From the NCBI GenBank assembly GCA_965223575.1, contig CBDCWZ010000010.1, positions 1 through 64,000 of the forward strand: a DNA stretch of 64,000 nucleotides, written 5' to 3'. The position numbers and the translations under genes were made by a program. Origin of the DNA: Kofleriaceae bacterium. Lineage in GTDB: Bacteria > Myxococcota_A > Polyangia > Haliangiales > Haliangiaceae. Positions 6,092 through 56,895 of this stretch are shown one piece after another. Within the stretch, counting starts at the first letter, position 1. Every line of letters starts with the position of its first letter. The notes under the pieces were generated by a model, which had not been told where the DNA came from, searched no databases, and saw only the letters and a list, made by a program, of their open reading frames with translations.

Positions 6092-6098
6092 CCTTCGA

Positions 6099-6243: not shown

Positions 6244-6249
6244 CAAAAC

Positions 6250-6408
6250 GCGGACGTGGTGGAACGGGATACACGCAACGTTGAGAGCGTTGTGAGCCAC
6301 GTGCTCAATGCCGGTTAACTCGGGGCCTTTGGACCCGTTCTCGGGGCTGAAAAATTCCACGATGTGGAATTTGTTCACCAACCCGGTCGAATCCGGCCGT
6401 CCGCACCA
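6250..6408 (+). tRNA. tRNA-Leu(GAG), class II, interrupted in T-loop by 71-nt B-family element (6317-6387); CCA encoded
   Basis: acceptor gcggacg/cgtccgc perfect; anticodon stem caacg/cgttg, loop ttgagag; long variable arm gagc-cacgt-gctc; spliced T-arm gccgg-ttcgaat-ccggc perfect. Confidence 0.65.
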
Positions 6409-6441
6409 TCCAGAAACATCAACCCTCAACGAAAGGCAGCC

Positions 6442-6972
6442 ATGACGGCTCAAACACTGTTGTTGTCCGCGGGCTATGAGCCGATCAAGGTCGTCTCTTG
6501 GCAACGCGCGATAACCTTACTCACGCTCGGCAAGATCGAAGTTCTGGAAGAGTATGATCGCGAAGTTCGATCCCCGACCATTGCGTTTAAGATGCCTGCG
6601 GTCGTTCGACTTTTGCAGGTACTCAAGCGCAACAAGAAGGCAGTCAAGTTCTCGCGCATCAACATCTATGCGCGGGATAAGTACCGGTGCCAATACTGCT
6701 GTCGAAAGCTACCCATCGCCGAGTTGACCTACGACCACGTCGTTCCGCGCGCGAAGGGTGGCAAGACGATTTGGCAGAACATCGTGACCGCATGCGAAAC
6801 GTGCAACAGCCGCAAGGGGAACCGGACGCCGGAGCAAGCGCACATGGCGTTGCTCAACCGGCCAACACGGCCGACTTGGGTCCCGGTCATGACGCTTCGG
6901 GTAAACCGCAACACGGCGCCCGATGCCTGGAGAGACTATCTCTACTGGACCGGTGAACTGCAAAGCGGCTGA
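6442..6972 (+). CDS. HNH endonuclease (small McrA-like HNH nuclease) embedded in the tRNA array
   Basis: CQYCCRKLP…LTYDHVVPRAKGG…CETCNSRKGN (HNH His-metal finger); RBS GAAAGG before the ATG at 6442. Confidence 0.8.
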   Translation: MTAQTLLLSAGYEPIKVVSWQRAITLLTLGKIEVLEEYDREVRSPTIAFKMPAVVRLLQVLKRNKKAVKFSRINIYARDKYRCQYCCRKLPIAELTYDHVVPRAKGGKTIWQNIVTACETCNSRKGNRTPEQAHMALLNRPTRPTWVPVMTLRVNRNTAPDAWRDYLYWTGELQSG

Positions 6973-7029
6973 CCGCACACCGAATGCCACGGGCCACAGA
7001 TCGGATCCGCGAGCCCGCCGGCATTCACT

Positions 7030-7117
7030 GGAGAGACAAACCGATTGGCGACGGTGCTCGGCTTGAACCCGAGTGAGCGTAACTGCCTTAGGGGTTCGAC
7101 TCCCCTTCTCTCCGCCA
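7030..7117 (+). tRNA. tRNA-Ser(TGA), class II, CCA encoded
   Basis: acceptor ggagaga/tctctcc; anticodon stem ctcgg/ccgag, loop cttgaac; long variable arm; T-arm agggg-ttcgact-cccct. Confidence 0.8.
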
Positions 7118-7118
7118 T

Positions 7119-7203
7119 GGAAGGCATCCGAATGGTGAGGACCCCGGTTGGAAGCCGGGCGGGCGACAACGTTGCCTTGAGGGTTCGAGTCCCTCGCCTT
7201 CCG
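7119..7203 (+). tRNA. tRNA-Ser(GGA), class II
   Basis: acceptor ggaaggc/gccttcc; anticodon stem cccgg/ccggg, loop ttggaag; long variable arm; T-arm gaggg-ttcgagt-ccctc. Confidence 0.75.
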
Positions 7204-7207
7204 CTGC

Positions 7208-7276
7208 GCCTCGCGGGACGGATCCCAGCTGGGTCTTCTAAACCCGGCGCTCCAGGTTCAATTCCTGGGCGAGGTA
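7208..7276 (+). tRNA. tRNA-Arg(TCT)
   Basis: acceptor gcctcgc/gcgaggt; anticodon stem tgggt/acccg, loop cttctaa; T-arm ccagg-ttcaatt-cctgg; short D-arm. Confidence 0.55.
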
Positions 7277-7277
7277 C

Positions 7278-12676: not shown

Positions 12677-15600
12677 TCATTGCCGTTCGTCCAGTTCGGC
12701 AAGCAGCTTGGCCAGCACTTTGCTGCGCTCTGGATCGCGCAGTAGTGTTTCACACGCTGCAAGTAGCTCTGCGCGGTTGCCCAAGTAGGCATCGGTTGTC
12801 TTCTCCAGGTACCGCGCTACGCGGAACAAGTCTGAGATCGGGACGGCACTTTTCCGTTTGCGGGAAGCCCGAACTGGCAACCAGCGTGGTCTCTGTGCGG
12901 GCTTGCCGGTCGGGGCAGGCGCCTTCCACGGACCAGGAGGCCTTGGGCCGACACGGAGGGGGCGACCCTCGCGGGTTGACGCCGCGTCCACAGGTAGCCA
13001 GCGCGAACCGTCGTTTGTTTCAACCAGCGCCATTGCCCACAGGTGATCCGGCTCGTCTACGAAACCGCGGTCAAACGTCCAACCCGTAGCGACAACAGCG
13101 GGAATGCCGGCGCGCCGGAGCAGTTCGCAAGCCAGTGCGTTGAGCTCATAACAGACGCCACGCCCCAGGGTGTCGGCGTCACTGCTTGCGTGCAGCGCCG
13201 CGACGTGTACATTGGAACGGCCGCGGCTTCGCTGCCGGAGCCAGGCTGCAACAGAAGGATCTTCGAGATAGGTGGGATCGTAAACGTAGCGCTCTCGAAT
13301 GAAGGAACGCACCGTTTCGGCCGCTGTGAGTACATCGGTCTCGTTGCGCGCGCTCGCCGCAATATCGTGCACTTCGTCCGGTAATTCCGCGTCCGCCACC
13401 GTGGGTTCCAGAAGTGCTCTGGGCGCACGACGCGGTCGGTCGCCGTTTTCCATGTTGGGCGGTTCAAAGAGCTCAACCTCGACAGTCACGACGGCGTCCT
13501 CTTTGTTAAGCCAAACAGAAAGCCCAGCGGCGTCAACCAGATGATCGAGACCATTCCCCATACCGTCGGCCTGTAGGAGAGACACTTGACCAAATAGGGG
13601 CACGGGTATCACCGCCTCTCCACCAGGCAACTTACCCCGCAAACGGACTCGACCCACAGAATCGGTGCCACGAAACCACGATCCATCGCCCACGAAACGC
13701 TGCCAGCTCTGACTCCAGGAGCTAAAGCCCGCGTAGAGGACTTGTGGCGCGTACTGGTATGGAAGTGGCAGCGACGCGGGCGAGTGGGCGAGACCGAAAG
13801 TTCCCGCCCGCTGGCGGTCAGCAAGCCAGCCTGTTCCGTCGGCTAGTTGTTCCTCGAGATTGCTCCGCGATCGAAACCAGCGGCGATCGCGCTTGGGGTC
13901 ACGACGCGCTGGGGGCGGACGTCTTTGCGACCTCGACCCAGACGGACCGCCAGCTGGCGGCGGAGCAAAAGAGCTTGGCTCGGACTTCGTGGAGTCCCGG
14001 CGGTCTGGCCGCGGCTTGGTCTCCTCATCTTGTTTGTCGTTTCCACGCAGCCATTGCCGCATGCGTGTCAAGAACCCTGGGCCCTCTTCCCCTTTGGGTG
14101 GGCTGGGCTCGCTCGGCTTCGGCTTGGCGGACTCTTCTGGCTCTGCGCCATGCTGGAACGTCTCCTGGATTGTGGGGCCGGTTGCGTTCTCCACAACGCT
14201 TGGGGGGCGACTGGTTTCTCTCGCTCCAATGCTGCTTACTACGCCGTAATGAGCTAGGTAGCTGGCCCAGGCAGAATGTTGCGCACCGTCAGCGAGTACA
14301 ATTTCGAACTCGCCTACGCCTTCATCCCCTGCGAATCTAATCCGCGCCGCTGCTTCTGGTAGCAGGCATACGTACAATTCCTCGTGCCTGTGGCATGCTA
14401 CAGCAAGTTGAGGAGGCTTGTGGCCACCACTGTCTACCAGAAGATCGAGGCACCGCGGCAGACGTTCGGCCCAAAGTTTCCCTTCGGCCTTGGCGACGCC
14501 ATCGGCCCAGTCCACGGTTGCACACAATTCTGAAATAAAGGAGACCACGTCGCGCTTTCCGGGCCGGCGTGCGATGCGCAAGGCCGACGCGAGGCGCCCG
14601 AGCTGTGCTCCCCGTGACCAATCGCCTCGTTGGTCTCCGAACCGGTAGCGGGCACCTTCGATGACAACCTCCCCGGGTCGCCGGAGCACGCCCAGGTCGT
14701 CAACGAGCATTGGAACATGACTGAGCGCATCGCGTAACTTGGTGCCGTCGATGCTGCCGGATGTGAGACCGGCATTGAGCCATGCCAGTACCTCGCTGCT
14801 CGCAGGCGGCTGAGCGGCGATGGTGGCCAGCACGTCCTCGAGGTCCGCGCTGGCACTATCTCGGGTGCCGATCCATTCATGTGCGTTGGGCACCCGATGA
14901 ACGACTTCAGGATGCACGAGACGATCTTCGCGTTCCCCGATGAGATCAGTGAGGTTATCCGAGGGCCAGTACAGTGCCTCGGGACGATGGGGTGTGCCAT
15001 TCTGATCGACGAGCCACGTGCGGTCACGAAGGGCCAGGGCATTTCGCAACTCCGGAATGCGGTGACCCAACCCCGCTACGTAACACGCAAGAGCGACTTT
15101 GGCGTCCGGGCCCGGTTTCAGCGCATTGCCGTCGAGAAATGAGCGTAAAGCATCTTCGCTGAGTTCTGCATCGGCTCCCGCGGCGACAAGCAGCGCTACC
15201 GTTTCGGCGGCCTCGTAGCGGCGAGACACCCGCTGGGGCATCGGGTCGGCGAAGCGCGCAATCAGATCACCATCGTGCGGCGTAGACGCCAATAGGGTTC
15301 TGGGCCGCTTAAACTCGCCGCTGGCACTTTCGACTCGGAGACGTTTTCGCAGCTGCAAGCGGCGCACACGATCACCGAACCCCTCTTGGTCGGGCCGCAG
15401 CGCCCGCGCGAGATGAGCAATGATCGACGCGAGCCTGTCGCCATCACGAGCGTCAATCGCCGCATCGGCGGCATCTAGCAGCTTGTCGCTCAGGGGGCGT
15501 AGCTGTTTGGTTGCGGGTCGATAGGCTGCGCGTAGCCATGTGACAAGCCGACTGGGCAGCTCGTCGGCGGGATTCCAATCGATGCCCAGGTCGGGCAGCT

Positions 15601-17248
15601 CGCGATCAAACAGCAACTCTGTTGGCGCGCGCTGGGCCCCCTGCCCTGAACGGACAAACGCGATCTTTCCCAGTAAGCCACGACTCTGCTCATCGTCAGC
15701 AAATGCATCGCACCGCGCCTCGAGCCACTGATAGAAAGCACGGCGGATTTCGCCGTCGGCAAAAACGGTGCTGGCGTGGCCGGGAGTATCGACCAGCGCG
15801 GCGAGAACCTGCCGCGGATTGGCTTTGCCGACCGCATCCGCGTCGGCGGCATGGACGATCGCCGACCATCGCGGATGTCCGATCCTTTTGGCGAATGGAA
15901 GCTCGGCGCAGAATACAAGCTCATGTTCATCGCCGAGGAGCAGATCGCCCGGCACGAGTTCACCGACGAGATTGACTCCAACCGGCAGAGTTTCAAGAGT
16001 TGGACAGGACTCCGCAGCTCGGCCACGAACGAAGGCGACGGCAACCGCTGCTGCTCGCTCCGGTGTCGCCAGGAGCTCGGCCTGTTCGGCTACCGGGGTT
16101 CCCACCTTGGCGATGCGTGATAGTGCTCGCTCAAACGCAGTCAGAGGATTCGAGAAAGTGAGCCACGGCTCGAGTTGCTCAGCCTGCACGTCAGCTTCCG
16201 CCAAGAGCAAGCTCGCTTCGTCGTCATCGAGCGAACTTGACCACAACACGAAAGTATCGTCCTCAACCCAGCGAGTGATGTCCCGGCGGCGAAGGACTTT
16301 TGAGGCGGGCAACAGACCTTGTCGTGTCGGCCAGATCGGTAGTGCGTGCAACGCATCGACGTGCTCTTCCGCCAATCCCGGTAGTTGGTCGCGACTGTTG
16401 ATGAGGGCTTGGCGCAACGCCCATGGATCTGCATCGGGCGCTAGGCCGCCCCCCGCCACCTTGAGTAGATCCACAAAGCTCGCCGGCGGGCGACCAGCCG
16501 CTGCAAGAAAGACTTCCAGTCGGCGAGCCTCTGTCTCGGAAAGCAATGGTAATGCGGTGCCAGCAAACGCTTCGCGCAACTCCGCCGGCACGTGATGCGC
16601 AGAGTTAGCGGCCGGTGCGTCCCAACTGGCCAGTGGCCTGAATACACTGTCGTCACATTGAAAGATCGCAGCGTCGCACACACGGGCCAGGCGTACGCCG
16701 GGAAGATGGCGGCCCGCAGCCGCGAGCAAGTCCGCGATCGCGGACCGTACGTCAATATCCGCGACCGGTAGTGTAGACGTGGCATCACGGTTCTTGGCAG
16801 CGGGCTGCGTCGTCGCAGCGACGAGATCGTCCAAGGCAGTACCGAAGTTCGGGATAACGACCAAATGATCGAGAGCAAGAGCGCGCGCCAGATGCTGAGG
16901 ACTGCCAGGCTCAGTTCCTTCGGTAATGGTGGGCCGATAAGGCCAGCGCTCGTAGAGCGCAGCTACGGCGGGCTCTGTACTGGAATGGCGAAGCTGATGG
17001 ATCGGATAACGACTGCCATCCTCGCTCCGCCAGATCGGCGCAGCCGCCAGTGCCGCGATGGTTGTGGGACTGAGCGCCTCGCGGTGCGTTGCGAGATAAG
17101 CAAAGGCGGCATCTTGGAAGCGAACGTCTTCCTCGCCACCCAAAAGGGCGTTTGCCACTGAGTCGGCATCGACGATCTTGACACCAAGTTTTGCGACGTA
17201 TGGTAGTTCGGCAATGTCGCGGCGGACCCACGCACGCTGGGGCCACAA
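12677..17248 (-). CDS. C-terminal ~1,500 aa of a giant protein: Ala/Leu-rich helical region, Pro/Arg-rich low-complexity linker, C-terminal transglutaminase-like Cys protease domain; probably one gene with 16963-19992 via a frameshift near 17230-17260
   Basis: C-terminus GVCYELNALACELLRRAGIPAVVATGW…DHLWAMAL…D (Cys-His-Asp TGase core); N-terminus of this frame (…DIAELPYVAKLGVKIVDADS) is protein-like and continues where the upstream frame degenerates. Confidence 0.6.
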   Translation of the reverse strand: MWPQRAWVRRDIAELPYVAKLGVKIVDADSVANALLGGEEDVRFQDAAFAYLATHREALSPTTIAALAAAPIWRSEDGSRYPIHQLRHSSTEPAVAALYERWPYRPTITEGTEPGSPQHLARALALDHLVVIPNFGTALDDLVAATTQPAAKNRDATSTLPVADIDVRSAIADLLAAAGRHLPGVRLARVCDAAIFQCDDSVFRPLASWDAPAANSAHHVPAELREAFAGTALPLLSETEARRLEVFLAAAGRPPASFVDLLKVAGGGLAPDADPWALRQALINSRDQLPGLAEEHVDALHALPIWPTRQGLLPASKVLRRRDITRWVEDDTFVLWSSSLDDDEASLLLAEADVQAEQLEPWLTFSNPLTAFERALSRIAKVGTPVAEQAELLATPERAAAVAVAFVRGRAAESCPTLETLPVGVNLVGELVPGDLLLGDEHELVFCAELPFAKRIGHPRWSAIVHAADADAVGKANPRQVLAALVDTPGHASTVFADGEIRRAFYQWLEARCDAFADDEQSRGLLGKIAFVRSGQGAQRAPTELLFDRELPDLGIDWNPADELPSRLVTWLRAAYRPATKQLRPLSDKLLDAADAAIDARDGDRLASIIAHLARALRPDQEGFGDRVRRLQLRKRLRVESASGEFKRPRTLLASTPHDGDLIARFADPMPQRVSRRYEAAETVALLVAAGADAELSEDALRSFLDGNALKPGPDAKVALACYVAGLGHRIPELRNALALRDRTWLVDQNGTPHRPEALYWPSDNLTDLIGEREDRLVHPEVVHRVPNAHEWIGTRDSASADLEDVLATIAAQPPASSEVLAWLNAGLTSGSIDGTKLRDALSHVPMLVDDLGVLRRPGEVVIEGARYRFGDQRGDWSRGAQLGRLASALRIARRPGKRDVVSFISELCATVDWADGVAKAEGKLWAERLPRCLDLLVDSGGHKPPQLAVACHRHEELYVCLLPEAAARIRFAGDEGVGEFEIVLADGAQHSAWASYLAHYGVVSSIGARETSRPPSVVENATGPTIQETFQHGAEPEESAKPKPSEPSPPKGEEGPGFLTRMRQWLRGNDKQDEETKPRPDRRDSTKSEPSSFAPPPAGGPSGSRSQRRPPPARRDPKRDRRWFRSRSNLEEQLADGTGWLADRQRAGTFGLAHSPASLPLPYQYAPQVLYAGFSSWSQSWQRFVGDGSWFRGTDSVGRVRLRGKLPGGEAVIPVPLFGQVSLLQADGMGNGLDHLVDAAGLSVWLNKEDAVVTVEVELFEPPNMENGDRPRRAPRALLEPTVADAELPDEVHDIAASARNETDVLTAAETVRSFIRERYVYDPTYLEDPSVAAWLRQRSRGRSNVHVAALHASSDADTLGRGVCYELNALACELLRRAGIPAVVATGWTFDRGFVDEPDHLWAMALVETNDGSRWLPVDAASTREGRPLRVGPRPPGPWKAPAPTGKPAQRPRWLPVRASRKRKSAVPISDLFRVARYLEKTTDAYLGNRAELLAACETLLRDPERSKVLAKLLAELDERQ

Positions 17249-22951: not shown

Positions 22952-25900
22952 GTGACCGGTCGGCGGCGAATCGGCAAAACTACTTTGATTCAGAAGGCCC
23001 TCGGGTCTGAACGGAAACACGGGGTTTTTTACATCCAAATTCCCGACTCAGGTCCTGCTGGTGTTCTGTCTGGAATTGCAGACGCTATGGATACTTTTGC
23101 GATTAATGAGGACGCCTTTCCTCGGCCAACGAATCTATCGCAGCTCGCCAGCATAGTGGGCCAACTGGCGCGCGCGGGCTATATTGTAGCGCTCGATGAG
23201 TTTCAGTATTTCAATCGTGCGAGACTGAAGGACTTCTGCTCACTGCTTCAGAGCGAGGTCGACAGACTATCGTCAGATGCCGAGAAGTATGCGCCCAATG
23301 CGCCCCATGTAGCATGAATCATCTGGCGGCAGTATTGTCGCTACATGGAACCATGCGGTTCAACAAACTCGATCGGTTTATTCCTGATCGACAATCTTCT
23401 CAGCGAGCCATTGAGCAGGGGTAGCGGTTCTCAGCTGGTTGGCGGAGATGCCGGCGGCGATTCTGTGAAAGATGTCTCTGAGATACTCGTAGGGGTTGGC
23501 GCCGACAAGGGTGCAGTTGAGCACAGCAGTCATGATGGTGGCGTAGCGTTGTCCTGCTTCGCGAGAGCCGACGAAGAGTGCATTTTTGCGAACCAGCGTA
23601 ACGATCCGGAGCGCACGCTCGACATGGGCATTGGAGATCGGCACCGAACCGAACTGCAAAAACAGGCCCAGGGCTTCGCGCTGCCGAGTCCAGTAGGTAA
23701 GCGCTTTGGCCAAGGGGGTACGAGATTTCCTCTGTTGGGCAAACTTGGCAACATAAGCATCGATGTCCGCAATCATGGCAACAGAATGTTGTTGACGAAG
23801 CGCGAGGCGTTGTTCGTCAGTCATCTGGTTGTCCTGGGCGTAACGCTCCACCTGATACAGTCTTGCCATCAAATCGATGACTGGTGCAGCTCGTTTGTCA
23901 CCACTGTCGAGCGCATGAACAAATTTTCTACGCGAATGGTCCATACAGCCAGCCTGCCGTGGTGGGGCCAATCCTCGATAGAGTTTTTTGATTCCCGCAT
24001 ATCCATCATGTTGCGTGTTGCCCTGAAATTCGGCGAGAAGTTTACAAGGGTAAATCCCTTTCCAGTCCGGCGAAAATTCACAATACGCGGTCCGCCCGCG
24101 ATCGCCCAAATAGATCCAAAATCGCCCACGCTGAATGTTTTTGGGATGGGCAGGATTTTGCATTGGCATGGGGGTATCGTCAAAGCTGATCAGTGCGCTC
24201 TTGAGTAGGTCTGTCTTGGCGCCTGGGTTAAAAACGGATAACAGCTCGGCCCCTTGCGCATACCACTGTCCCAATGTTTTGTCAGATAGCTCGATCCCGC
24301 GTCGCAGCAATGCGGTGCTTTGACGATACAGAGGCATCGCGTCGCAGACTTTGCTCGTCATGATTTGCGCCATCAGGCTGGGGGTTACCACGGAGCCTGG
24401 GATCAGTTTGGGCGTTAAATTCCCGCTGACAATGCCGTCTTTGCAGTCACGACACGCGTATTTATGAGCGCGTTCTTCGCGGACGAAGGCATGTTGCTGG
24501 TTCAAATTCTAGGTGCACTGTTTTGTCGAAACCAATGTGGTCCTTTTCGCGATTGCAGCCATTACAGTGGCGTTCCGAATCAGGGGGATGTTTGTCGTCG
24601 ATCACTCGCTCGAGATTGTCTAAATTTGTGGTCCGCTTCTTACGCTTTTTTCTCTTGTGAGCAGGAGTCTTCGATCGTTTCCTTTGGTAAGTCCGAAGGC
24701 CCCCTCGGCCACCATGTATTCTAGGAGCGCGAGTGACAACTGAGCCGGGGAGATTTTTTCTGAGCTCGGACGATATTTCGACGCAATCTGCCTCCGCATA
24801 CCATCGATTTCTTGTTTCATGCGCTCAATGATCGGCATGGCTTCGGCAAGAACTTCTTGGCCGGCTTCACGCTCCTTGTCCGTTGCCAGATTGGCAGTGA
24901 CCGAAACAAGAAATTCGTGAATCGATGCCGTATCGATAGAGCCTTCCCACGTCCCCACACCTCCTTGTATCACGCGTGTCCGACATTCTCACCTTTACGA
25001 AACTCTTGATTGCGATTGTTTTTCCGCGAAGAAGTTTCGCCAAATCCTCTGCTTTGATCTCGATCGTGTTCCTGATCTTGTTTGGGAATCGGAAATGTCC
25101 CAGACTCAAGTCGCTTCGCCAAAATGCAATATCCCTGCTGATCAAAAAACAAAATCTTGAGCAGATGACGCCGACGATTGGCAAATACGTATAGATGGCC
25201 GGTTTCTGGATCTGCGTCCAGCGCTTCACGAACAACCTTCGCAAGACCATCAAACTGTTTCCTCATGTCAACAGGATTCACTGCCACAAAAACGCGGACC
25301 TTCGTCGGTAGCGTTAACATGAGCCATCCAGAGAGTTTGCCCACTCGCAGACATTCTCGCCGATCCGACTTGGAACAAAACAATAAACGCCTGCCGTTTT
25401 TGAGAACGAGCTCGTAGCGGGGTTCTCCGCTCAAAGCAATCTCGTCACGAACCTTTACTTCAACAAATTCTGTCTGGCCAGATTGTTTTTCACGCCTCTG
25501 CCAACTCCATAACGCAGACGCCGAGATCCCATGATGTTTGCCAAATTCTACCGCAGACCGATTGCTCTTCTGCCATGCGCGGAGAATCTTTCGCTGCTCT
25601 GCACGACTTCTTTGAATCCGTTTTTGCATTCCATGCGGTTTAACTCGACAGGCTGCTGCGCGAAACATGGGGCTCACGGGGCGCATACGCCGAGAACGTC
25701 TCTGGGGGGACTGCTCGTTCTGGGATCCATTCACACCGAGATGTCCACGCTTCTAGAAGATCGGAGCGCTCCGTTATTCAATCGCACCACCGACGAAATC
25801 GCGCTATCTCACCTGGACGTTGGTTCCCTAATCAAATTGCTGGACGCGCATACTGATTCGACGCCAGAGCGACTGTTATTTCTTTGGAATATGTTCGAGG

Positions 25901-32298: not shown

Positions 32299-32562
32299 CT
32301 AGATCCCTAGCGCTACGCATTGGAGCGCGGATTTGAAACGCCAATGCGACGAGGTTTCAAGACCATCATCTTCGTGGCCGTCAATCACGGCGATTCCGGC
32401 TAGATGGGCACGATCGAGATTCGTCGTAAGCGGCACGACTAGAACCGATTGTAGTGCTCGGATGAGGGCATCACTCTGCCATACCACCACTGGGCGTCTG
32501 CCTGTTTGCTCAAGTGGACGATGGGCACCGAGATCAGCCCACCAGATTTCGCCGCGCTTCAT
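32299..32562 (-). CDS. mazF: MazF/PemK-family endoribonuclease toxin
   Basis: MKRGEIWWADLGAHRPLEQTGRRPVVVWQSD…; a truncated copy of its first ~28 codons lies at 11936-12020. Confidence 0.75.
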   Translation of the reverse strand: MKRGEIWWADLGAHRPLEQTGRRPVVVWQSDALIRALQSVLVVPLTTNLDRAHLAGIAVIDGHEDDGLETSSHWRFKSALQCVALGI

Positions 32563-33315
32563 CTAGCATCTTCTTCAGCCAGCATCTCGCACCACTCATC
32601 TATTCCTTGATCAGCAAGGACCATATCCTCTTCCTCACCAATCTTGGCGAGACGATTTAAGTCGCGGGATCGGGACGGCGAAGCACGATCGAAGAGACAC
32701 GCTCTCCATGGCTAAGATCTAGACGTTTGCCGGGCTTGAGCACACCGTCACGGTATTCAGCTTCAATTGGCTTCACAGTCAATAGGTTACCATGTTCCCA
32801 AACTGCGGGCCATCGCCGTGATTTGGCCCTAGAAAAAGCAACAAAAACGAGAGGTTCAAACCGTCTCCGAAAGCGGCGCAGAGCGTGATTTTTCCGGGCT
32901 AGTCCTCGATTGGGCATAGACGGGGAATTCCAACAAACGATTCGCCACACACACTACAACGCTTTACGTTCACACCAATCAAGGTAACGCGAACGCCCTG
33001 GGCATCGTACAGATAGTTTTCTCTTGCAGACTTCAACTGCCCGTCACAATGTATGCACTTCATGTCCATCTCCCCAAACTAGCGATGCGTCCGCCATACT
33101 GTGACGATGACAAGCTCGAACTCACTCCAGAAGCAACCACAACGGTGGGCAACACGCCGAATAATAATGCGTGTCATTGCTCAGACGCGTGGTCTGCCGG
33201 TAGCTCTTCCTGAAAATCTTCCCAAGAAGTTCCTTCGTCGGGATCTCGTTCGTACTCTGCTAGCCGTTCGTCTAATACTTTGCGGTGCCAGTTGGGAACT
33301 TCAACTTGCTCTGAT

Positions 33316-33546
33316 TTATGGCCGAAATCCTGCAATTTTTCTCAGTGGACAGGGTGCTCGCCGACGCGCCCGCTTCGCGATGAGGCCCAAGCATTTCCGG
33401 CAAGTCACGGCTCGAAGATCGTCGGTTGCAATACCCTCGACCTCAGCTCGATGGGCAGCCTCGAGATCCCTGGGATTACACAACACCATGTCTTCTGCGT
33501 TGAGAGCATGTAGATCGCACGTTGTTCTCCTGTCGGCCATGTTCAT
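33316..33546 (-). CDS. small hypothetical protein translationally coupled to rtcB (ATGA overlap)
   Basis: 76-aa ORF starting 4 nt before the rtcB stop. Confidence 0.35.
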   Translation of the reverse strand: MNMADRRTTCDLHALNAEDMVLCNPRDLEAAHRAEVEGIATDDLRAVTCRKCLGLIAKRARRRAPCPLRKIAGFRP

Positions 33547-34691
33547 GTCCCCTTGTAGACCAGCACTGGTTCCAAACGCCGGACGATGCGTGTAAGCGTT
33601 TTCTGTGCCCGCATTACTTTGTTGATGTTCTTATAGGCCCCGGGAGCCTCGTCTCGCAGACGGCCCGCGATGCGGTGATCGAACCAGATGCCAGTCATCT
33701 GCTCGACCAGTTTATTAATGCTGATTGCTCTTCGAGCCTCGGTTCGGCTGAGGCAGCGACCAGCACCATGAGAGCTTGAACACAAAGACTCGACATCGCC
33801 CCGGCCCTCAACGTGAAAGCTGGCACTACCCATTGATCCGGGGATAATCCCCGGTTCTCGTAAACGGGCTGAGATAGCCCCTTTGCGGTGAACCCACAGC
33901 AGTCGATCTTGGTGTTTCTCCTGTCTAACGAAGTTGTGATGACAGTCAAAGTACGACTCCCACCGTGCAACGCTGCCGGTGACGTCTTCCAACCTGCGTG
34001 CGACGACCTCGGCCATGCGCCGTCGACTCAGCCGCGCATAATCAAGAGCCCACTTGAGATCGTGCAAATAGGCTTGCCCAAGCGACGAATTCGCAGGCAT
34101 CGAGCGTAGACCTCCGTCGGCACCACCATGATGTTCACGGATACCCTGGCCGATCCCACGGGATCCGCTGTGCACCATCAACCACAGCGCGTTCTCGGCA
34201 TCGCGTTGAAATTCGATGAAGTGATTTCCGCGCCCCAGTGTTGCGAACTGCGTCCTAGCGATTTTGGTTTTCTTCTTTTCCAGAGACGACACCGACAGTT
34301 TTCGACTGGCTAGCTCGTCGGGAAGCCTTGCGTTGACTGATCTGTGACTCGACGTAGGCACTTGATTCGCCAGCATCGTGAGCACGCGAGCCGCCATAAT
34401 TCGGTCGTTTAGAAGGTTCGCGTCAGTATCAAATCGCAGCGCCGACATCCCACAACCAATATCGCCTCCCACGGCATCGGGAAAGAGATGGCTGTGCGTT
34501 GCGACGACGGTACCAACGCACACCGCTTTGGCAAGATGTACATCGGGCATCACTGCGACCACAGCGACGTCCTGCAACTCCGCGATCCTATCCAGCGCCC
34601 TGCGAACGTCCGCTGGTAGCGCGTCATGGGTCCACGTTCGGACAGGCATGCGGCTACTCATTGCCAACCTCCTGTTCCCAATTCCCGTCAC
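33543..34691 (-). CDS. rtcB: RNA 3'-phosphate/2',3'-cyclic phosphate ligase RtcB
   Basis: DVHLAKAVCVGTVVATH…GGDIGCGM…NHFIEFQ…MVHSGSRGIGQ…CHHNFV…SSSHGAGR. Confidence 0.9.
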   Translation of the reverse strand: MTGIGNRRLAMSSRMPVRTWTHDALPADVRRALDRIAELQDVAVVAVMPDVHLAKAVCVGTVVATHSHLFPDAVGGDIGCGMSALRFDTDANLLNDRIMAARVLTMLANQVPTSSHRSVNARLPDELASRKLSVSSLEKKKTKIARTQFATLGRGNHFIEFQRDAENALWLMVHSGSRGIGQGIREHHGGADGGLRSMPANSSLGQAYLHDLKWALDYARLSRRRMAEVVARRLEDVTGSVARWESYFDCHHNFVRQEKHQDRLLWVHRKGAISARLREPGIIPGSMGSASFHVEGRGDVESLCSSSHGAGRCLSRTEARRAISINKLVEQMTGIWFDHRIAGRLRDEAPGAYKNINKVMRAQKTLTRIVRRLEPVLVYKGT

Positions 34692-35118
34692 TCATCGCCT
34701 TCGCTGGAACAACCGTGAAGCGCAGCATCGGGACGCGCTTACGGTTGATGGCCTTGGCAACTTCGCTGCGAAAATAGCCGGCTGCTCGATCCAATATCTG
34801 ATGCATCCCCTCATAGTCATAGTCTCCTTCTGATGTGACCAGCACCCGCAACTGTGCAGCACCTCCCTGTGGTTCCACGGAGGCGACGTAGACACCCCTA
34901 AGAAATGGATTGGCGGAGCACGCGAGAGCGATCGCAATGGCCTCTTCTACCTGCCTGCAGAGCTGGATTGTTTTGGTATCTACCCTGTGAGGGTCAGAAA
35001 ATACGGATTCTTCTTCGTTACTTGAGCCAACAAGGCCCTCATACGCGCAATCATTTCTGCGCCGTTTCTTGCGTGAAGTCATGCTTCTCCCATTGCGTGG
35101 CAGGCAGACGCCAGCCAC
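34654..35118 (-). CDS. RbfA-family (ribosome-binding factor A-like) protein with Arg-rich N-terminal extension, first gene of the rtcB operon
   Basis: …RVDTKTIQLCRQVEEAIAIAL…LRGVYVASVEPQGGAAQLRVLV…GYFRSEVAKAINRKRVPMLRF follows the RbfA KH-like pattern. Confidence 0.5.
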   Translation of the reverse strand: MAGVCLPRNGRSMTSRKKRRRNDCAYEGLVGSSNEEESVFSDPHRVDTKTIQLCRQVEEAIAIALACSANPFLRGVYVASVEPQGGAAQLRVLVTSEGDYDYEGMHQILDRAAGYFRSEVAKAINRKRVPMLRFTVVPAKAMSDGNWEQEVGNE

Positions 35119-36114
35119 ACGTCATCAATCAGACGTTTTCAAACGGGTCTCAAATCCGGCGTCAACCCTCTCAGGGACACCGTGAGAGCTAGAAGACGCG
35201 GGAAGTAAAACCCACGAACGAAAGCATGTTGGCAAGATCGGACATGATGGCCTCCTGTGGTTCTTTTAAGATACCGGCACATCGCCGATTTGGCAAGCAG
35301 ATTCTACTAGTGCGATCAGATCTCGACTGGTCTCGGCAAACAGATGTACCCGTGGCCGGGTCCGATAAGAGCGTTAGCGAGCCGGCAGGCGAAAACCGTA
35401 GCGGTAACCCTGGTCAGAATAGCGTAAGGATTCGACCTGGAATCGAGCTGGAAAGTCAGTTTCCAGCCGTTTTAGAAACTCGGTCAGGCGAGGCCCGTTG
35501 CGGTCAGCGAGGCGGCGATTGTCACCGGGGGGCAATAAACGATTTGGAAATGTCAAAATCACCTTTTTTTAGTCCTAGTTGGGTTAAGTGGAGCTAAAAC
35601 TGGTAGCGTTGATTGAGTTTTTGAGGATGAACAAGTCAAGAACTACATTGAGATCGAGCGTATTCCGTACATACTTGTTAGTCTTATCGCTTGCATGGAT
35701 CTCGTGTGGGCGAGTTGGCTTTGATGCTACGGCAATAGACGATCGTAGCAACCGCGATGCCGGAGACACGAATATTCAAGTCACGGATGGCCTGGTTGCC
35801 CGCTACTTGGTTGCGGGAACGGGACTCACCGACGAATTTGGCGATGGCCCTACCGGAACAAATCCTAGAGCAGGCATCCTTAGGACGACGCACCCATAAG
35901 TTACGAGAAACTTCTTGCGTTTTGCGTCGATTTCGCTAACCTAATTGAATCTCCATTGTCGGGGAGCCAAAGAACATGATTGCTTCGTACTTCATTTAAT
36001 CCCTCCTGCCAAAGCGAACTGTCCAGTTTGATTTAGGCGTCGGCATCACGAGCACAACGTGCTCATTGTTGGTGGCGACATGAGGTTCAGCGGATTCATC
36101 GTTGCAACGCGCGC

Positions 36115-37551
36115 ATGTTTGATCGCAGGTGCGCAAACGCCGAGATGTGTCTGCTGGCGCAGGAGAAGGATAAGCAGATGAAGTTTAAGTCAAAACCGAT
36201 AGAAGAGCATCTCGAAGTACCGCTTCCCGACGATGGTCGTTGGGAGGAAATCGTCGCCCATTGGGCACGACGAGACGGCTCCAGGGCCACAACAAACAAC
36301 GAAAACAATTTGTGCTACGTCGTTGCCGTCGCGCTGCGAGATGAGCTTGAACCACGCGGAAGTCTCGCCGAGCTCATGAGTCTTGTGCGCACCCAGGGTG
36401 ATGCCATCGTAGGTCATGAGACCCACCGCGTAAGCAAGCCCAATCCTCGCTTGCTTGTCGGTGTCGGGACCGCCAAGGATATCGGCCAAAGGGCTACCGA
36501 ATGTGGCGCAGATATGCTCGTGATTGACGCCGAGCTCAGTCCCTCACAAACGCGCAACCTCGAAGACGCGACCGGATTTGCAGTCTGTGATCGTGAGGCG
36601 GTCATCCTCAATGTATTCCAGCGCCATGCAAAAACGCAGAAAGCTCGGATTCAGGTTGAGATTGCACATCTCGAATATCTCCGACCGAGGATCCGTGGCA
36701 TCGGATTGGTGATGGACCAACAAGCAGGTGGAATGGTGAACAGCCGAGGGTCAGGCGAGACCGCCTCCGAGCTCCTGGCCCGGCGGCTCGACGGCCGATT
36801 GGCCGTGCTGCGTAAGGCATTCAGCAAGCTGGCTAAATCTGGAACCGTTCAACGCCAAAAGCGCACGACGTGCAAACGAATCGTCTTGGTCGGGTACACA
36901 AACGCTGGAAAGACCTCACTGATGAACACCATGACCTGTGCTGGGCTGTCCGCAGCCGACCGACCGTTCGAAACATTGGACACTACCTCGCGCTGCTTAA
37001 CGCGGCACGGTGGAGATGTCCTCGTCAGCGACACGGTTGGTTTCATCCGCAATTTGCCTGATCGTCTATTCGCCAGCTTCGAATCGACCCTGTCTGAGAC
37101 ACTAGAGGCATCGCTACTCGCGCTGGTTGTCGATGCTTCTGATCCAGAACGCGAGTTGCATTTGCGAACCAGTGAAGAGCTCCTGGCCCGACTCGGTGCC
37201 GATAAAATCCCTCGGCTGTATGTGTTTAATAAGATCGACCGTCTCAACCTTCAACCTTATCAGGACAGCTTAGATAACCTGAGTCGAGGTCACGAGCACA
37301 TTGCCGTTTGCAGCCACGAGGCTGGAGATGTCGCACGACTCAAGGAGACGCTGTTGCGGCTGGCCCGGCAAGAGCAACAAGTCTGTCGCGTATTCCTCTC
37401 GTACGCATCGACAAAGGCGATTGCCACCGTCTATGCCAAGTGCCGTGTGATCTCGGTAAAGTCAACACAGGACGGGCTTCAGTTCACGATCGCCGGAGAA
37501 CCACACGTCGTTGCCAAGATTCGGTCAGCGAGCGAGGAGATACAACAATGA
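36115..37551 (+). CDS. hflX: GTPase HflX
   Basis: …IVLVGYTNAGKTSLMN…DTVGFIRNLP…NKID…; N-terminal HflX domain; true start possibly M at 36178. Confidence 0.9.
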   Translation: MFDRRCANAEMCLLAQEKDKQMKFKSKPIEEHLEVPLPDDGRWEEIVAHWARRDGSRATTNNENNLCYVVAVALRDELEPRGSLAELMSLVRTQGDAIVGHETHRVSKPNPRLLVGVGTAKDIGQRATECGADMLVIDAELSPSQTRNLEDATGFAVCDREAVILNVFQRHAKTQKARIQVEIAHLEYLRPRIRGIGLVMDQQAGGMVNSRGSGETASELLARRLDGRLAVLRKAFSKLAKSGTVQRQKRTTCKRIVLVGYTNAGKTSLMNTMTCAGLSAADRPFETLDTTSRCLTRHGGDVLVSDTVGFIRNLPDRLFASFESTLSETLEASLLALVVDASDPERELHLRTSEELLARLGADKIPRLYVFNKIDRLNLQPYQDSLDNLSRGHEHIAVCSHEAGDVARLKETLLRLARQEQQVCRVFLSYASTKAIATVYAKCRVISVKSTQDGLQFTIAGEPHVVAKIRSASEEIQQ

Positions 37552-39161
37552 AAGTCACAAACCGAAAAGACTCCGGGCAATTGCTACTGCAAGCCAGACG
37601 ACTGGACATCCATGCGCCCGGTGGAAGACCTCTGTTTCGCGACTTGAACATCAACCTGGAGAGAGAACGTGTTGCTCTAATCGGTCGAAACGGCGCGGGC
37701 AAGTCGTCGCTCCTCGAAGTTCTTTCCAAACAAGCGAATCCACGTGCCGGTGAGGTTGTCGTGAATGTCGATTCCGTTCTCGTTGGGCAGCACCTAGATC
37801 CGGTGTGGATCTCAGAGATGGTGCGTAGCCGTTGGGGCGGATGCACTGAAGTTTGGGCGGATGAAGTATCCGGTGAACTTGCAGAAGCAGGCCTACCACT
37901 ATTGCCTCCGCTGTCCGAGATTCCGCGTTGGAGCCGAGGAGAGATGAGAAAGGTCTGCCTTGTGACGGCCAAGACTGCTAGGCCCGAGTTGCTGTTTCTG
38001 GACGAGCCCTCACAAGATCTGGATGACGCTGGTCTCAACTGGCTGACAACGTGGCTGGCCGATTTTCGCAGCGGCCTGATGCTCGTTTCTCATGACAGAA
38101 GACTTCTGCGATACTTTTCCCACTTCTTCATCGTGGCCGAGTCGGGCTGCGATTACTTTCGCGGGTCCCTGGCCAATCTTGAGCGAGAACTGGTGCGGCG
38201 AAGTACGGATGAGCAAGCGCGCTATGTCCGCAACCTCAACGTTCTTATGGAGCGCGAACAACACAATGAGAGAGTGAACAGTCGACGTCGCCGCAAAAAG
38301 AATCTTGGCCGCATCCATGAGATTCGGCGTGCTCCGTCGCGAGCGAAACTCAACGAAAACCGCGGCTACGCCCAAGAGAGTCAAGGCAAGCGCAGTCGCA
38401 TACGCAAACAGCGAATCGGAGCGGTACGAACCTGGGCCAAGGCAACGCGGCGGGCGCTCGCGGTGACGCTACCGTTACAGGCCGTGATGCCACGCTTACC
38501 GGATAGTGATAGCCGTGACAATATCGTACTTGAGGGAGTGAGTGCGACGGTAGGTGGGCGCAGGCTGTTTGCGGCACTCGACTTGCGCATTCGGCGCCAT
38601 CGAGTTGCGGTGATGGGAGCCAATGGGGTCGGGAAAACAACCTTGCTAAGGATGATGTTGGGACACACCGCTCCGAATGCTGGAGCAGTCAAGCTCCGCT
38701 CGCAACAGATCGGCTCGATCGCCCAGGGAGCGACAGACTGGATGTTGGAGGAGAGTCTGTTGTCGTGTCTGCTGAAATGCGGACAAGAGAATTCTCCAGA
38801 GACCCTGGCTCAACTCCTTGTTGGCCACAGGTTTCCGCTTGCCCTCGCCGAACGCTCACTTCGTTCTCTAAGTCCGGGCGAGCGACTTCGCGCAGCGCTG
38901 ATATGTTTGTTCCAACGTTTCCCACCGATCGAGCTCCTCGTGCTAGACGAACCAACCTACAGTCTTGATTTTAGTGGAGCCGTCGCACTGCGTGCGGTTC
39001 TCAGCGAATGGCGGGGGGGTCTGGTCGTTGCCACCCACGATTACGACTTCGTAGCGTCTATTGGGATCGAAAAACGAATCTGGTTCGACGGAAATGGGAG
39101 CCACGAGATTTCTACTTTGACTGCGGCGGAATCGTGTCCCAACCTCGCCGACCACGCATAA
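37548..39161 (+). CDS. ABC-F family ATPase (tandem ABC domains, no TMD; EttA/Uup/ARE-like translation factor)
   Basis: GRNGAGKSSL…LFLDEPSQDLD and GANGVGKTTLL…LSPGERLR…LVLDEPTYSLD; start overlaps the hflX stop (ATGA). Confidence 0.85.
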   Translation: MKVTNRKDSGQLLLQARRLDIHAPGGRPLFRDLNINLERERVALIGRNGAGKSSLLEVLSKQANPRAGEVVVNVDSVLVGQHLDPVWISEMVRSRWGGCTEVWADEVSGELAEAGLPLLPPLSEIPRWSRGEMRKVCLVTAKTARPELLFLDEPSQDLDDAGLNWLTTWLADFRSGLMLVSHDRRLLRYFSHFFIVAESGCDYFRGSLANLERELVRRSTDEQARYVRNLNVLMEREQHNERVNSRRRRKKNLGRIHEIRRAPSRAKLNENRGYAQESQGKRSRIRKQRIGAVRTWAKATRRALAVTLPLQAVMPRLPDSDSRDNIVLEGVSATVGGRRLFAALDLRIRRHRVAVMGANGVGKTTLLRMMLGHTAPNAGAVKLRSQQIGSIAQGATDWMLEESLLSCLLKCGQENSPETLAQLLVGHRFPLALAERSLRSLSPGERLRAALICLFQRFPPIELLVLDEPTYSLDFSGAVALRAVLSEWRGGLVVATHDYDFVASIGIEKRIWFDGNGSHEISTLTAAESCPNLADHA

Positions 39162-39172
39162 AACTGCACCCG

Positions 39173-39556
39173 TTACTTTTCTCTGTTGAGCGCAAGCGCC
39201 TGCTTCAAATAGTATTTGATGGCGGCTTTGTTCATCTTTTTGAGAGGTACGACTCTCATTACTTTTCCGTTTCCGGTCAGCAACCCGTATTTGTCCTCCA
39301 TCCGTGCGCCTTTCAAAAAACCGATATCAATTCCATACTTCATCGTCCGCATGTGACAAATTCCAGCTTCTGAATCGGAGTAGGTCGTGATTCTGTCTTT
39401 TTTGATTTCGACGATTCCTTTAGTCCCAAGCAGCAATTTTCGTGCTTCGAGGAACAGTTCCTTGTGTTCTGATTTTATATCCTTGTTGAATTGCATGTTT
39501 TCCTCAATGGAACGTGAACTGAAAACTTTCATGAAAGTACAGCCAACTGAAAACAC
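39173..39556 (-). CDS. DUF1801 (YdhG-like) domain protein
   Basis: 127 aa, …KYGIDIGFLKGARMED…. Confidence 0.4.
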   Translation of the reverse strand: MFSVGCTFMKVFSSRSIEENMQFNKDIKSEHKELFLEARKLLLGTKGIVEIKKDRITTYSDSEAGICHMRTMKYGIDIGFLKGARMEDKYGLLTGNGKVMRVVPLKKMNKAAIKYYLKQALALNREK

Positions 39557-39566
39557 TAGAGCTTAT

Positions 39567-40373
39567 CTAAAACTCTATCGGCAAAAGTACCTCCGTCTGC
39601 AGCTTCTCGGGGGGGACGTCCGCCGGGTCGTTTAGATAAATCTCTCGCATTGAATCGCGTTGGACGTGGCCTCGTTCTTGTGCCCATGCAAATAGTGCGT
39701 GATAGGCGACCCCCAGCTGATCGTAGCTACCGCTATGGGTAAGCCACGCCACTGGTCCTCCAGTGATCGTATCAATGTCTGCTTTTTCGAGTTTAGGAAA
39801 GGGAGCTCGAACCCCAACACATGCGTGGACAATGACTTTCCCATCGGGCCGTGGATCCTCGTTAATACACATCACCGGAAGCTCAAAGCTTCGGCTGGCC
39901 TTCTCCAACTCAGCAAGCACATCGTAGATCAGAGCACCTGACTCGTCGACCATTCGATCAAATGATGTAATGCAACTTCGCTTTGCAACTGTGTAGTCGG
40001 GCTCGGTTCGAATTGCTGCGCTGTACGGGGCAAGGTTACCTGCCTCAGCCAGTTTCTCAATCGATCGCAGGGCATGCTTCTTTTTGCTTAGCTCACGCGC
40101 AACACGCTGCTGTTCTTCTTGCAACAGTTGACGGAGCGTATCTCCTTGGGCATGAATCATGGCGCGAACGGAACTGACCGGCACGTCCAAGGAGCGAAGC
40201 ATGCCGATCATCACCGCAGTCCGGGCCTGCTCTCTGGAATAGTAGCGGTAGCCGGTTTGCGGATCGACATGAGCTGGCTCGAGCAATCCCTCCTTAGCGT
40301 AGTGGCGCAAAGCTTTGATGCTCAATCGACAGGATTTCGAAAACTTTCCTATAGGCATCAAGGATTTCGCCAT
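39567..40373 (-). CDS. MerR-family transcriptional regulator with GyrI-like effector-binding domain (BmrR/Mta-type multidrug sensor)
   Basis: MPIGKFSKSCRLSIKALRHYAKEGLLEP…TGYRYYS (MerR HTH) plus ~150-aa C-terminal GyrI-like region. Confidence 0.75.
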   Translation of the reverse strand: MAKSLMPIGKFSKSCRLSIKALRHYAKEGLLEPAHVDPQTGYRYYSREQARTAVMIGMLRSLDVPVSSVRAMIHAQGDTLRQLLQEEQQRVARELSKKKHALRSIEKLAEAGNLAPYSAAIRTEPDYTVAKRSCITSFDRMVDESGALIYDVLAELEKASRSFELPVMCINEDPRPDGKVIVHACVGVRAPFPKLEKADIDTITGGPVAWLTHSGSYDQLGVAYHALFAWAQERGHVQRDSMREIYLNDPADVPPEKLQTEVLLPIEF

Positions 40374-40381
40374 TTTTTCTC

Positions 40382-40855
40382 CTAGCCCTCAAGATGATAC
40401 TTGCGAGCAAACTCTGGTGAGGGTGGGATCATCTTAACAACATCAACCAATAATCCATTGGGGTCAACTGTCATAAAGTGTCGCTGACCCCACTCTTCGT
40501 CGCGAAGCGGGCAAACAATTTTGTATCCGACCTCTTGTGCCTTTTGATACACCGAGTCCACATCATCTAGCTCAATAGTAATCACCACGCCCTGCGGAGA
40601 ATCCTGGAACTCCACCGGCACACTGGAATGACGTCTCTGAACAAACGCAATCTGAAGATTTTCATCCGTGGGGGACCGTAGTTGAATGTACCAGTCGATC
40701 TCAAACACGAGTTCAAAATTCAGGAGCGACGTATAAAATTCTTTAGACTCTATTAGATGGTCTGAACAAATATCGGGAAACAGACTTTTCATCGCTAACT
40801 CCTTGGGTTGATGGAAGTGTTTCCATGGTCGAGTCTCCCCTAAGAGGAGAGTCAA
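40382..40855 (-). CDS. VOC/glyoxalase-bleomycin resistance family protein
   Basis: …SLFPDICSDHLIESKEFYTSLLNFELVFEIDWYIQL…; start more likely the M at ~40792. Confidence 0.6.
   Translation of the reverse strand: MTLLLGETRPWKHFHQPKELAMKSLFPDICSDHLIESKEFYTSLLNFELVFEIDWYIQLRSPTDENLQIAFVQRRHSSVPVEFQDSPQGVVITIELDDVDSVYQKAQEVGYKIVCPLRDEEWGQRHFMTVDPNGLLVDVVKMIPPSPEFARKYHLEG

Positions 40856-52284: not shown

Positions 52285-52285
<1 letters not shown>
50813..52285 (-). CDS. gltD: glutamate synthase (NADPH) small subunit
   Basis: …CMDCGIPFCQ…CP…; RVAIVGSGPAGLAAA (FAD/NAD fold), full-length 490 aa. Confidence 0.95.

Positions 52286-56895
<4,610 letters not shown>

Follow-up and report, generated by a model that had tools for sequence, protein, structure and literature searches.

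The subject of this analysis is a gene pair in which an RbfA-like protein is coupled to an RNA ligase of the RtcB family. It lies in a stretch of 64,000 nucleotides (nt) from a Kofleriaceae bacterium (contig CBDCWZ010000010.1, positions 1 to 64,000; hereafter the window). We refer to the pair together with its leader, which carries a short upstream open reading frame (uORF), as operon A. We propose that operon A would be a stalling-induced cassette repairing 16S rRNA; the case for this, argued by comparison with known systems, is in our view evenly balanced. An earlier note, made from the letters of the window alone, had described operon A and a neighbouring hflX-ABC-F operon (operon B) as one integrated block. 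All genes that it named were found in the window by listing of open reading frames and by profile scans, while some coordinates had to be corrected, and the calls of 142, 372, 537 and 268 amino acids (aa) are found as the same calls in the protein collection. The integrated block itself did not survive comparison: in about 50 related loci (labelled L0xx where they are named below) the RbfA-like/RtcB pair and hflX-ABC-F never occur together. As judged from conserved gene order, the block is two independent two-gene cassettes standing back to back, each conserved elsewhere and never jointly. The features of operon A are the following (RBS, ribosome-binding site):

35080-35262 (-): structured 5' leader RNA of the RbfA-like/RtcB operon, from predicted fold and covariation
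35189-35245 (-): leader uORF of the operon, 18 codons, MSDLANMLSFVGFTSRVF followed by stop; RBS AGGAGG at 35251-35256
34654-35082 (-): RbfA-like gene, 142 aa; Pfam RBFA, below the gathering score
33543-34661 (-): RtcB, 372 aa; Pfam RtcB

The stop codon of the RbfA-like gene overlaps the start of RtcB by 8 nt (ATGAGTAG), and RtcB has a strong AGGAGG RBS of its own. To compare this arrangement, 16 genome and 27 metagenome loci were obtained from pattern-guided scans and 5 more from exact-protein look-ups; looking up the exact sequences of the window RbfA-like protein and of its nearest relative yielded no contigs. RtcB directly follows the RbfA-like gene in 34 of the approximately 41 fetched loci able to show it, and most of the 22 pairs that are readable end to end overlap (spacings of -8, -11 or -4 nt). 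Since the overlapping pair recurs in so many loci, its adjacency is far beyond chance. Carriers include metagenome-assembled Kofleriaceae, Vicinamibacteria and other Acidobacteriota, Phycisphaerae and other Planctomycetota, and Gammaproteobacteria. The earlier claim of an RtcB with an unusual partner in place of rtcA, rtcR or archease is thereby borne out, with the pairing conserved across many genomes: none of RtcA, RtcR and archease flanks RtcB in the window, and none is a conserved neighbour at the related loci. Clustering of flanking reading frames gave no third conserved gene either. The genomic surroundings include mobile elements, as the cassette of L006 adjoins insertion sequences and IS66 genes lie about 8 kb from the cassette in the window. 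RtcB is missing downstream at contig ends, on two short contigs and in a Fimbriiglobus/Planctomycetaceae subgroup (L012-L017, L046), in which an extracytoplasmic function (ECF) sigma factor and kinase-like genes lie downstream of the RbfA-like gene. In one further lineage RtcB is cut down to an N-terminal stub of 69 aa (L002:2339-2548, L003:2364-2573), while the leader and the RbfA-like gene are intact, which looks like decay of the cassette.

The assignment of the first gene to RbfA, for which the earlier note had named a profile search as the test, holds by Pfam, by a profile search of the Protein Data Bank (PDB) and by fold search. The protein matches Pfam RBFA (PF02033) with an E-value of 6e-8 and 33.3 bits, where the gathering score of 34.7 is not reached, and TIGR00082 with 19.9 bits, where the cutoff of 51.15 is not reached. 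Among 60 family representatives, 56 match Pfam RBFA at E<=1e-3 and no other Pfam family. A profile built from eight close homologues retrieved only RbfA chains from the PDB, with an alignment that spans the AxG motif. The AlphaFold2 model has a core with a predicted local distance difference test score (pLDDT) of 85-96, and its order of helices and strands is that of a type-II KH fold (alpha1-beta1-beta2-alpha2-alpha3-beta3). In a Foldseek search against the PDB the top 15 matches were all RbfA (best 1jos, E 9e-7), with template modelling scores (TM-scores) of 0.75-0.82, normalised to the target, and a root-mean-square deviation of about 2.3 Å. Judged by profiles and by the modelled structure, the RbfA assignment is real at the level of homology and fold. 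The family is large: an HMMER scan of 1.84 billion representative proteins gave 1531 clusters at 50% identity (E<=1e-3).

With canonical RbfA (PF02033, TIGR00082) the protein shares the type-II KH fold, the AxG motif, an aromatic residue at the position of Phe78, Arg80 and the VPxLxF strand. The window motif A100-A-G102-Y103-F-R105 aligns to A75-S-G77-F78-I-R80 of Escherichia coli RbfA, and across 146 family representatives this region retains the Ala in 69%, the Gly in 79%, the aromatic residue in 60% and the Arg80 equivalent in 99%. In contrast to canonical RbfA, it possesses an N-terminal extension of about 35 residues, which starts with a basic head (MTSRKKRRR) and continues as a disordered acidic linker; at least four Lys/Arg within the first 15 residues were counted in 94 of 136 representatives. 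Two motifs are specific to the family, QLCxQV and R-K-R-x-P, which in the window protein read QLCRQV and R114-K115-R116-x-P118. The coupling to RtcB and the lack of a C-terminal tail separate it from canonical RbfA as well. A housekeeping rbfA was also considered and is disfavoured. Neither in the window nor in about 55 loci were InfB or TruB matches found, so there is no nusA-infB-rbfA-truB context, and the protein stays below the NCBIfam equivalog cutoff for rbfA.

The second gene is a clear member of the RtcB family (PF01139, E 1e-81, 275.8 bits, cutoff 27). Equivalents of D95, C98, H203, H234, H329 and H404 of Pyrococcus horikoshii RtcB are all aligned in the window protein, and these metal-ligand and His-nucleophile residues are invariant in 18 cassette RtcBs. 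From these residues the cassette RtcB is predicted to be a short 3'-phosphate/5'-OH RNA ligase of the RtcB family whose active site is intact. The window protein shares 34% identity with E. coli RtcB1, compared with 30% for E. coli RtcB2. An RtcB2-type identity was rejected, as both RtcB2-type models were missed (158 against a cutoff of 271.8 and 198 against a cutoff of 407; TIGR03073 / NF007153), identity is at 30% and no release-factor-like gene adjoins. By these similarities the cassette RtcB is neither RtcB1-type nor RtcB2-type and represents a putative new RtcB clade. With the sigma-54 controlled rtcBA/RtcR operon of E. coli and Salmonella, which is induced by damage to the translation apparatus, the window shares an RtcB with the same metal ligands and His nucleophile. 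Unlike that operon, it lacks RtcA, RtcR, archease and, in a promoter scan upstream of the cassettes, any convincing sigma-54 -24/-12 element. Its regulation would apparently act in cis through the translated leader.

This leader was absent from the earlier description. Alignment of the upstream regions revealed approximately 180 strongly conserved nt ahead of the cassette, which begin with AGGAGG and the 18-codon uORF. Relatives of the uORF, of the form M[LF][DH]LANMLPFVGF..RV., stand at the same distance in L002, L004, L027, L028, L029, L030 and L033, with a variant in L008. In the predicted structure uORF codons 6-10 (CAUGCUUUCGUUC) form a long-range helix with the RBS and AUG of the RbfA-like gene, a second helix involves uORF codons 11-13, and three internal hairpins add to a multi-branched fold (-78 kcal/mol, z -3.36 for the window leader). 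RNAalifold predicted 49 pairs from 9 leaders, with 92.6% of alignment cells paired and 12 pairs changed on both sides, values that were reached by none of 500 shuffles; controls with slid registers gave about 41% paired cells and 3-4 double-changed pairs. In L027, for example, a uORF codon changes from ATG to ATA, and the start of the RbfA-like gene changes to match, from CATG to TATG. A trimmed covariance model, R1, matches only directly upstream of RbfA-like genes. It has a single match in the window (35080-35233) and finds L006 and L032, both outside the training set, with 56 bits each. At the gathering thresholds of Rfam only tRNAs were returned, and between 34950 and 36250 no match reached E<=1.

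To model occupancy, a ribosome footprint was masked on the uORF and the predicted accessibility of the downstream RBS was recomputed. A footprint early in the uORF raised this accessibility in all nine group-1 leaders (from 0.19 to 0.62 in the window), whereas a footprint at the uORF stop codon gave no rise, except in L033. The layout is that of an erm- or cat-type translational attenuator. The uORF and the RBS-hiding helix, which is supported by covariation, thus have in the model the structural hallmarks of a leader-peptide attenuator. The known leaders of ermC, cat, Listeria rli80-hflXr and ABC-F resistance genes resemble it in their short uORF with strong RBS, in the downstream RBS hidden by pairing with the uORF and in a helix that a stalled ribosome is predicted to open. 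In contrast to them, the sequence and peptide of the window leader are unrelated, it has no Rfam match, and it would control an RNA ligase and an RbfA-like protein.

Other lineages carry other uORFs. Cassettes of the Acidobacteria type have a different uORF of 17-18 codons (MLA...) at the same distance and in the same RBS context in at least 14 loci, and two other lineages have uORFs of 6-7 codons. The Acidobacteria-type leader lies about 100-170 nt upstream of the RbfA-like start (L009, L011, L021, L034-L036, L038, L041-L043, L045, L048-L050, L052) and consists of AGGAGGC and then a uORF of the form MLAxxxxxxxSSLSLxGR followed by stop. The 3' end of this uORF pairs with a downstream AGAGAGCCAGGCUC in a helix backed by compensatory changes, and a CUCCUC tract is complementary to the RBS of the RbfA-like gene.

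How might such an operon work? In the resting mRNA, as modelled in silico and supported by covariation, RBS and AUG of the RbfA-like gene would be sequestered by uORF codons 6-10. A drug-stalled or damaged ribosome that lingers early in the uORF would melt this helix, and both overlapping genes could then be translated. The RbfA-like protein may bind the 30S subunit, hold the 3' minor-domain fragment and expose the break. Such a role on the 30S subunit is suggested since the protein retains the AxG-aromatic-Arg surface by which RbfA grips 16S rRNA and holds the linkers of h44 open. The 16S nucleotides gripped by true RbfA are 1530-1536; with the protein present, the 16S 3' end is captured and the h44 linkers remain disordered (PMC8177701). 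RtcB would, by analogy with PrfH-RtcB2, reseal a nick with 2',3'-cyclic-phosphate and 5'-OH ends in 16S rRNA. A candidate source of this nick is a ribotoxin of the colicin E3, CdiA or MazF type. The MazF site is near position 1500. For colicin E3 and CdiA the cleavage site in 16S rRNA is A1493, in the 3' minor domain. 30S subunits cleaved there are repaired by RtcB2, whose gene is accompanied by that of a ribosome-binding partner, yet only as free subunits (PMC9304027).

The RtcB2-PrfH operon, found in E. coli ATCC 25922 and others, is the closest parallel to operon A in layout: two overlapping genes, an RtcB-family ligase together with a paralogue of a housekeeping ribosome-binding translation factor, and an accessory module in varied contexts. 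However, RtcB2 is known to reseal 16S rRNA in the 30S subunit (PMC9304027), whereas for the window cassette this is a proposed function. Furthermore, the partner in the window is an RbfA-like KH protein encoded upstream, whereas PrfH is a release-factor homologue encoded downstream, and the window has a leader uORF and an RtcB that is 30% identical to RtcB2 and below TIGR03073 and NF007153. Taken further, the proposal would describe a portable, self-regulating cassette in which a detector of stalled or damaged ribosomes in cis, an RbfA-derived clamp of the 16S 3' end and a dedicated RtcB rejoin ribotoxin-cut 16S rRNA. This would be a second, PrfH-independent solution, spread across Myxococcota, Acidobacteriota, Planctomycetota and Proteobacteria. 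We put this wider version forward as a tentative idea that is rather more likely to fail than to hold.

Several observations weigh against repair of 16S rRNA by operon A. The window RtcB resembles RtcB1, which repairs tRNA, somewhat more than RtcB2, which repairs the 30S subunit. The RbfA-like protein has no counterpart of the C-terminal tail of E. coli RbfA, and just 60% of the family have an aromatic residue where RbfA has Phe78. The planctomycete subgroup from Fimbriiglobus and Planctomycetaceae carries the RbfA-like gene without RtcB; these genes could represent the family in its ancestral or stand-alone state. No conserved ribotoxin or immunity gene emerged nearby when the flanking reading frames were clustered. 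On the side of the leader, the alignment comprises just 9 related sequences, and for the Acidobacteria-type leaders the occupancy model gives no consistent effect.

Some of these points would also fit a different role. The RbfA-like protein might be a general RNA-end cofactor or activator of RtcB, either archease-like or a substrate clamp, with tRNA or mRNA as the repaired molecule and a leader that reports translation stress in general. The similarity of the ligase to RtcB1 is in line with this, neither archease nor RtcA is present for the role of cofactor, and a protein with a new basic N-terminal head and no RbfA C-terminal tail could bind any RNA. Moreover, contacts of true RbfA near the AxG motif were found by nuclear magnetic resonance (NMR) to be not sequence-specific (PMC8177701). 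However, the profile and fold matches of the RbfA-like protein are all ribosome-bound RbfA and never generic KH domains, the residues that grip the 16S 3' end (AxG, aromatic, Arg) are largely retained, and the sole precedent for combining an RtcB with a translation-factor homologue comes from ribosome repair (PMC9304027). We consider a general cofactor the main alternative, albeit an unlikely one.

An alternative RbfA paralogue that, together with RtcB, processes or re-joins pre-16S ends or fragmented rRNA under cold or starvation appears improbable. As an assembly factor, RbfA does work at the 16S 3' end in late maturation, and RtcB-less RbfA-like genes in Gemmataceae-type genomes suggest a stand-alone function. 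Yet the variable contexts of the cassette, with insertion sequences in L006 and IS66 genes in the window, are characteristic of accessory modules for stress or defence, control through a leader uORF is a usual trait of inducible rescue genes, and no rRNA or assembly genes lie nearby.

The second cassette, operon B, is encoded on the opposite strand:

35976-35999 (+): leader uORF of the hflX-ABC-F operon, MIASYFI followed by stop; RBS GGGGAG
36178-37551 (+): hflX, 457 aa from M22; TIGR03156
37548-39161 (+): ABC-F gene, 537 aa; Pfam ABC_tran twice

HflX exceeds the cutoff of TIGR03156 (313.5 bits against 216.75) and carries the Pfam domains GTP-bdg_N, GTP-bdg_M and MMR_HSR1. Since its homologues align from M22, the start is probably at 36178 and not at 36115. 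Its identity to the HflX encoded ahead of ABC-F in L054, L055 and L056 is 58-61%, and the protein is about equally similar to the solved mycobacterial HflX, to Listeria HflXr and to E. coli HflX. The ABC-F protein comprises two ABC domains and a basic linker, lacks a membrane domain, and its best PDB matches are all ABC-F proteins. Its best named model is NF000355 (ribosomal-protection-like), with 225.7 bits against a cutoff of 380, and all other named ABC-F models (Msr, Vga, Lsa, Sal, OptrA, EttA, Uup etc.) stay far below cutoff. ABC-F proteins bind the E site of the ribosome. The ribosome-splitting GTPase and the ABC-F ATPase are coupled in operon B, presumably for the clearing of stalled ribosomes.

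The coupling of the two genes by an ATGA overlap, claimed in the earlier note, is conserved. HflX stands immediately upstream of ABC-F, with overlapping stop and start codons, in all five homologue loci with readable contigs (two Polyangiaceae metagenome assemblies, Paraliomyxa, one Desulfobacterales assembly and one further NCBI assembly). A short uORF precedes hflX in each of the five: MIFSHFI in L054 and L061 and MFFSSHFV in L062, each followed by stop, and other short uORFs with strong RBS in L055 and L056. In the window, the 3' end of the uORF and the following pyrimidine-rich tract UCCCUCCUGCC are predicted to pair with the RBS and AUG of hflX (duplex at -31.3 kcal/mol, against -18.5 +/- 3.5 kcal/mol for shuffles). 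However, this pairing is convincing in the window only, weak in L061 and weaker or absent elsewhere. The idea that an HflX/ABC-F pairing is known from inducible tolerance loci stands only in the functional sense. In Listeria, HflXr (lmo0762) and Lmo0919/VgaL cooperate against ribosome-stalling antibiotics and are controlled by leaders, but lmo0762 and lmo0919 are separate loci and not linked genes (PMC6310831). In contrast, the window pair forms one operon with an ATGA overlap, and the pair is kept in Myxococcota and in one Desulfobacterales metagenome assembly.

Do the two operons belong together? They lie on opposite strands, as stated for "divergent operons", but their gene starts are 1.1 kb apart. 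No hflX, no hflX-linked ABC-F gene and no MerR gene was detected at any related RbfA-like/RtcB locus, where ABC-type matches amounted to two weak ones (about 26% identity) several kb off, in L010 and L041. Vice versa, RbfA-like/RtcB and MerR are absent from all five hflX-ABC-F loci (by similarity search in three and from gene lists in two). A scan for sigma-70 promoters and terminators gave counts at chance level. Between the two leaders there is a possible reading frame of 90 aa (35627-35899, +), whose N-terminus resembles a signal peptide or lipoprotein (MNKSRTTLRSSVFRTYLLVLSLAWISC...) and which has no Pfam match. Since both operons carry translated leaders of the stalling-sensing type, a role in translation stress fits. 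This part of the earlier picture stands, while the idea of a single module does not. Likewise very improbable is that 33.3-40.4 kb forms one antibiotic-stress regulon under a BmrR-type MerR/GyrI regulator: although the components are physically close, both operons are translation-related with stalling-type leaders and MerR/GyrI regulators sense drugs, the cassettes do not co-occur, neither is accompanied elsewhere by a homologue of MerR, VOC or DUF1801, each has a separate cis-acting leader, and the MerR string is convergent to ABC-F and 4.5 kb away from the inter-cassette promoter region.

The genes flanking the two operons are the following:

32299-32562 (-): MazF/PemK remnant (pseudogene); PemK model positions 1-67 of 109
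33316-33540 (-): small probable zinc-binding protein, 74 aa, 2 nt past the RtcB stop
39173-39556 (-): DUF1801-like gene; Pfam DUF1801 E 2.5e-4, below cutoff
39567-40373 (-): MerR + GyrI-like regulator; Pfam MerR_1, MerR, GyrI-like
40382-40855 (-): VOC/glyoxalase-fold protein; Pfam Glyoxalase E 1.9e-12; probable start M22 at 40792

By Pfam, a MerR protein of BmrR-type architecture (N-terminal helix-turn-helix and GyrI-like domain) and a VOC protein are indeed present nearby, as the earlier note had stated. A regulatory role of the former in the block is not borne out, given that no homologue stands near either cassette elsewhere. The VOC, MerR/GyrI and DUF1801 genes form one string, with VOC first. 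Because this string is convergent to the ABC-F gene, it shares no promoter region with either cassette. The DUF1801-like gene is absent at all related loci.

The small protein probably starts at 33540 (M3), which leaves a 2-nt gap after RtcB and not an ATGA overlap. Its family comprises more than 1431 clusters at 90% identity, with members of about 66 aa whose identity to the window protein is approximately 60-78%. The residues H13, C23, C49 and C52 do not vary, the core reads NPRDxEAAHRAExEGIAT, and some members are tagged PF27025; the structure model is of low confidence (pLDDT 54.6). Behind RtcB the small protein is encoded in just three places, the window, L006 and L008, while elsewhere it stands alone in unrelated contexts. 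Based on this distribution it is probably an occasional passenger and not part of the cassette core, and it is probably zinc-binding. Together with the MerR/GyrI, VOC and DUF1801 genes it is, by gene order and distribution, a bystander.

Adjacency to MazF and to a tRNA array had been pointed out as well. The MazF gene is a pseudogene, whose C-terminal half (VLIHQIGILDRGK...) lies in another frame past stop codons. With a frame for an AF2212-like domain upstream of MazF/PemK, it makes up a decayed toxin-antitoxin pair at 32299-32950 (-). The tRNA array (3228-7277) is 26 kb from RtcB, with IS66 and unrelated genes in between. At 2985-7277 (+) it comprises 16 tRNA genes in about 4 kb and a partial Rfam tRNA match (2985-3038); Gln, Ala, Thr and Ser occur twice each with differing anticodons. 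In cyanobacteria, translational stress induces long tRNA arrays, which are co-regulated with rtcB (PMC8421152). Given the IS66 genes present, an IS66-family transposase and IS66 Orf2 (TnpB) at 23378-25734 (-), the region between the tRNA array and the cassettes is variable. With IS66 genes, decayed toxin and tRNA array, this part of the window looks variable as a whole, and the two rescue modules look like neighbours by chance.

Further genes of the window may be mentioned briefly. The segment 27000-32283 has an ADP-ribose theme, with a Macro domain that carries an ADP-ribosylglycohydrolase fragment, an NrtR-type Nudix/winged-helix regulator and a second Macro domain, and it also encodes an SPFH/Band-7 protein, a 299-aa protein without Pfam match and DUF1152. 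PADLOC, run on three of these (the SPFH protein, the 299-aa protein and DUF1152), gave no match for any. For the RbfA-like protein, RtcB, HflX and the small protein it gave no defence-system match, and for the ABC-F and MerR proteins only generic ATPase or helix-turn-helix matches. Two long reading frames, 12677-17248 (-) and 52285-56895 (-), encode 1523 and 1536 aa, the first with a C-terminal transglutaminase-like core.

In the literature searched, we found no description of the RbfA-like/RtcB cassette, although an earlier mention in RNA-repair genomics is possible, no such leader upstream of rtcB and no fused hflX-ABC-F operon. New here, and apparently not described before, are the RbfA-like partner of RtcB, the RtcB clade and the leader, while a ribosome-directed RtcB repair operon is already a known kind. 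The hflX-ABC-F operon physically joins rescue factors that were previously known to cooperate only from separate loci. The natural substrates of bacterial RtcB have been an open question since 2011, with RtcB2 and PrfH as the only clear case of ribosome repair. A second conserved pairing, in which RtcB is joined by a homologue of the factor gripping the 16S 3' end, yields a concrete and testable substrate hypothesis, and with approximately 1500 clusters at 50% identity the RbfA-like clade is large. The leader would be a new sensor of ribosome stalling that controls RNA-repair genes, and the cassette may offer a new handle on how bacteria survive ribotoxins and ribosome-targeting antibiotics.

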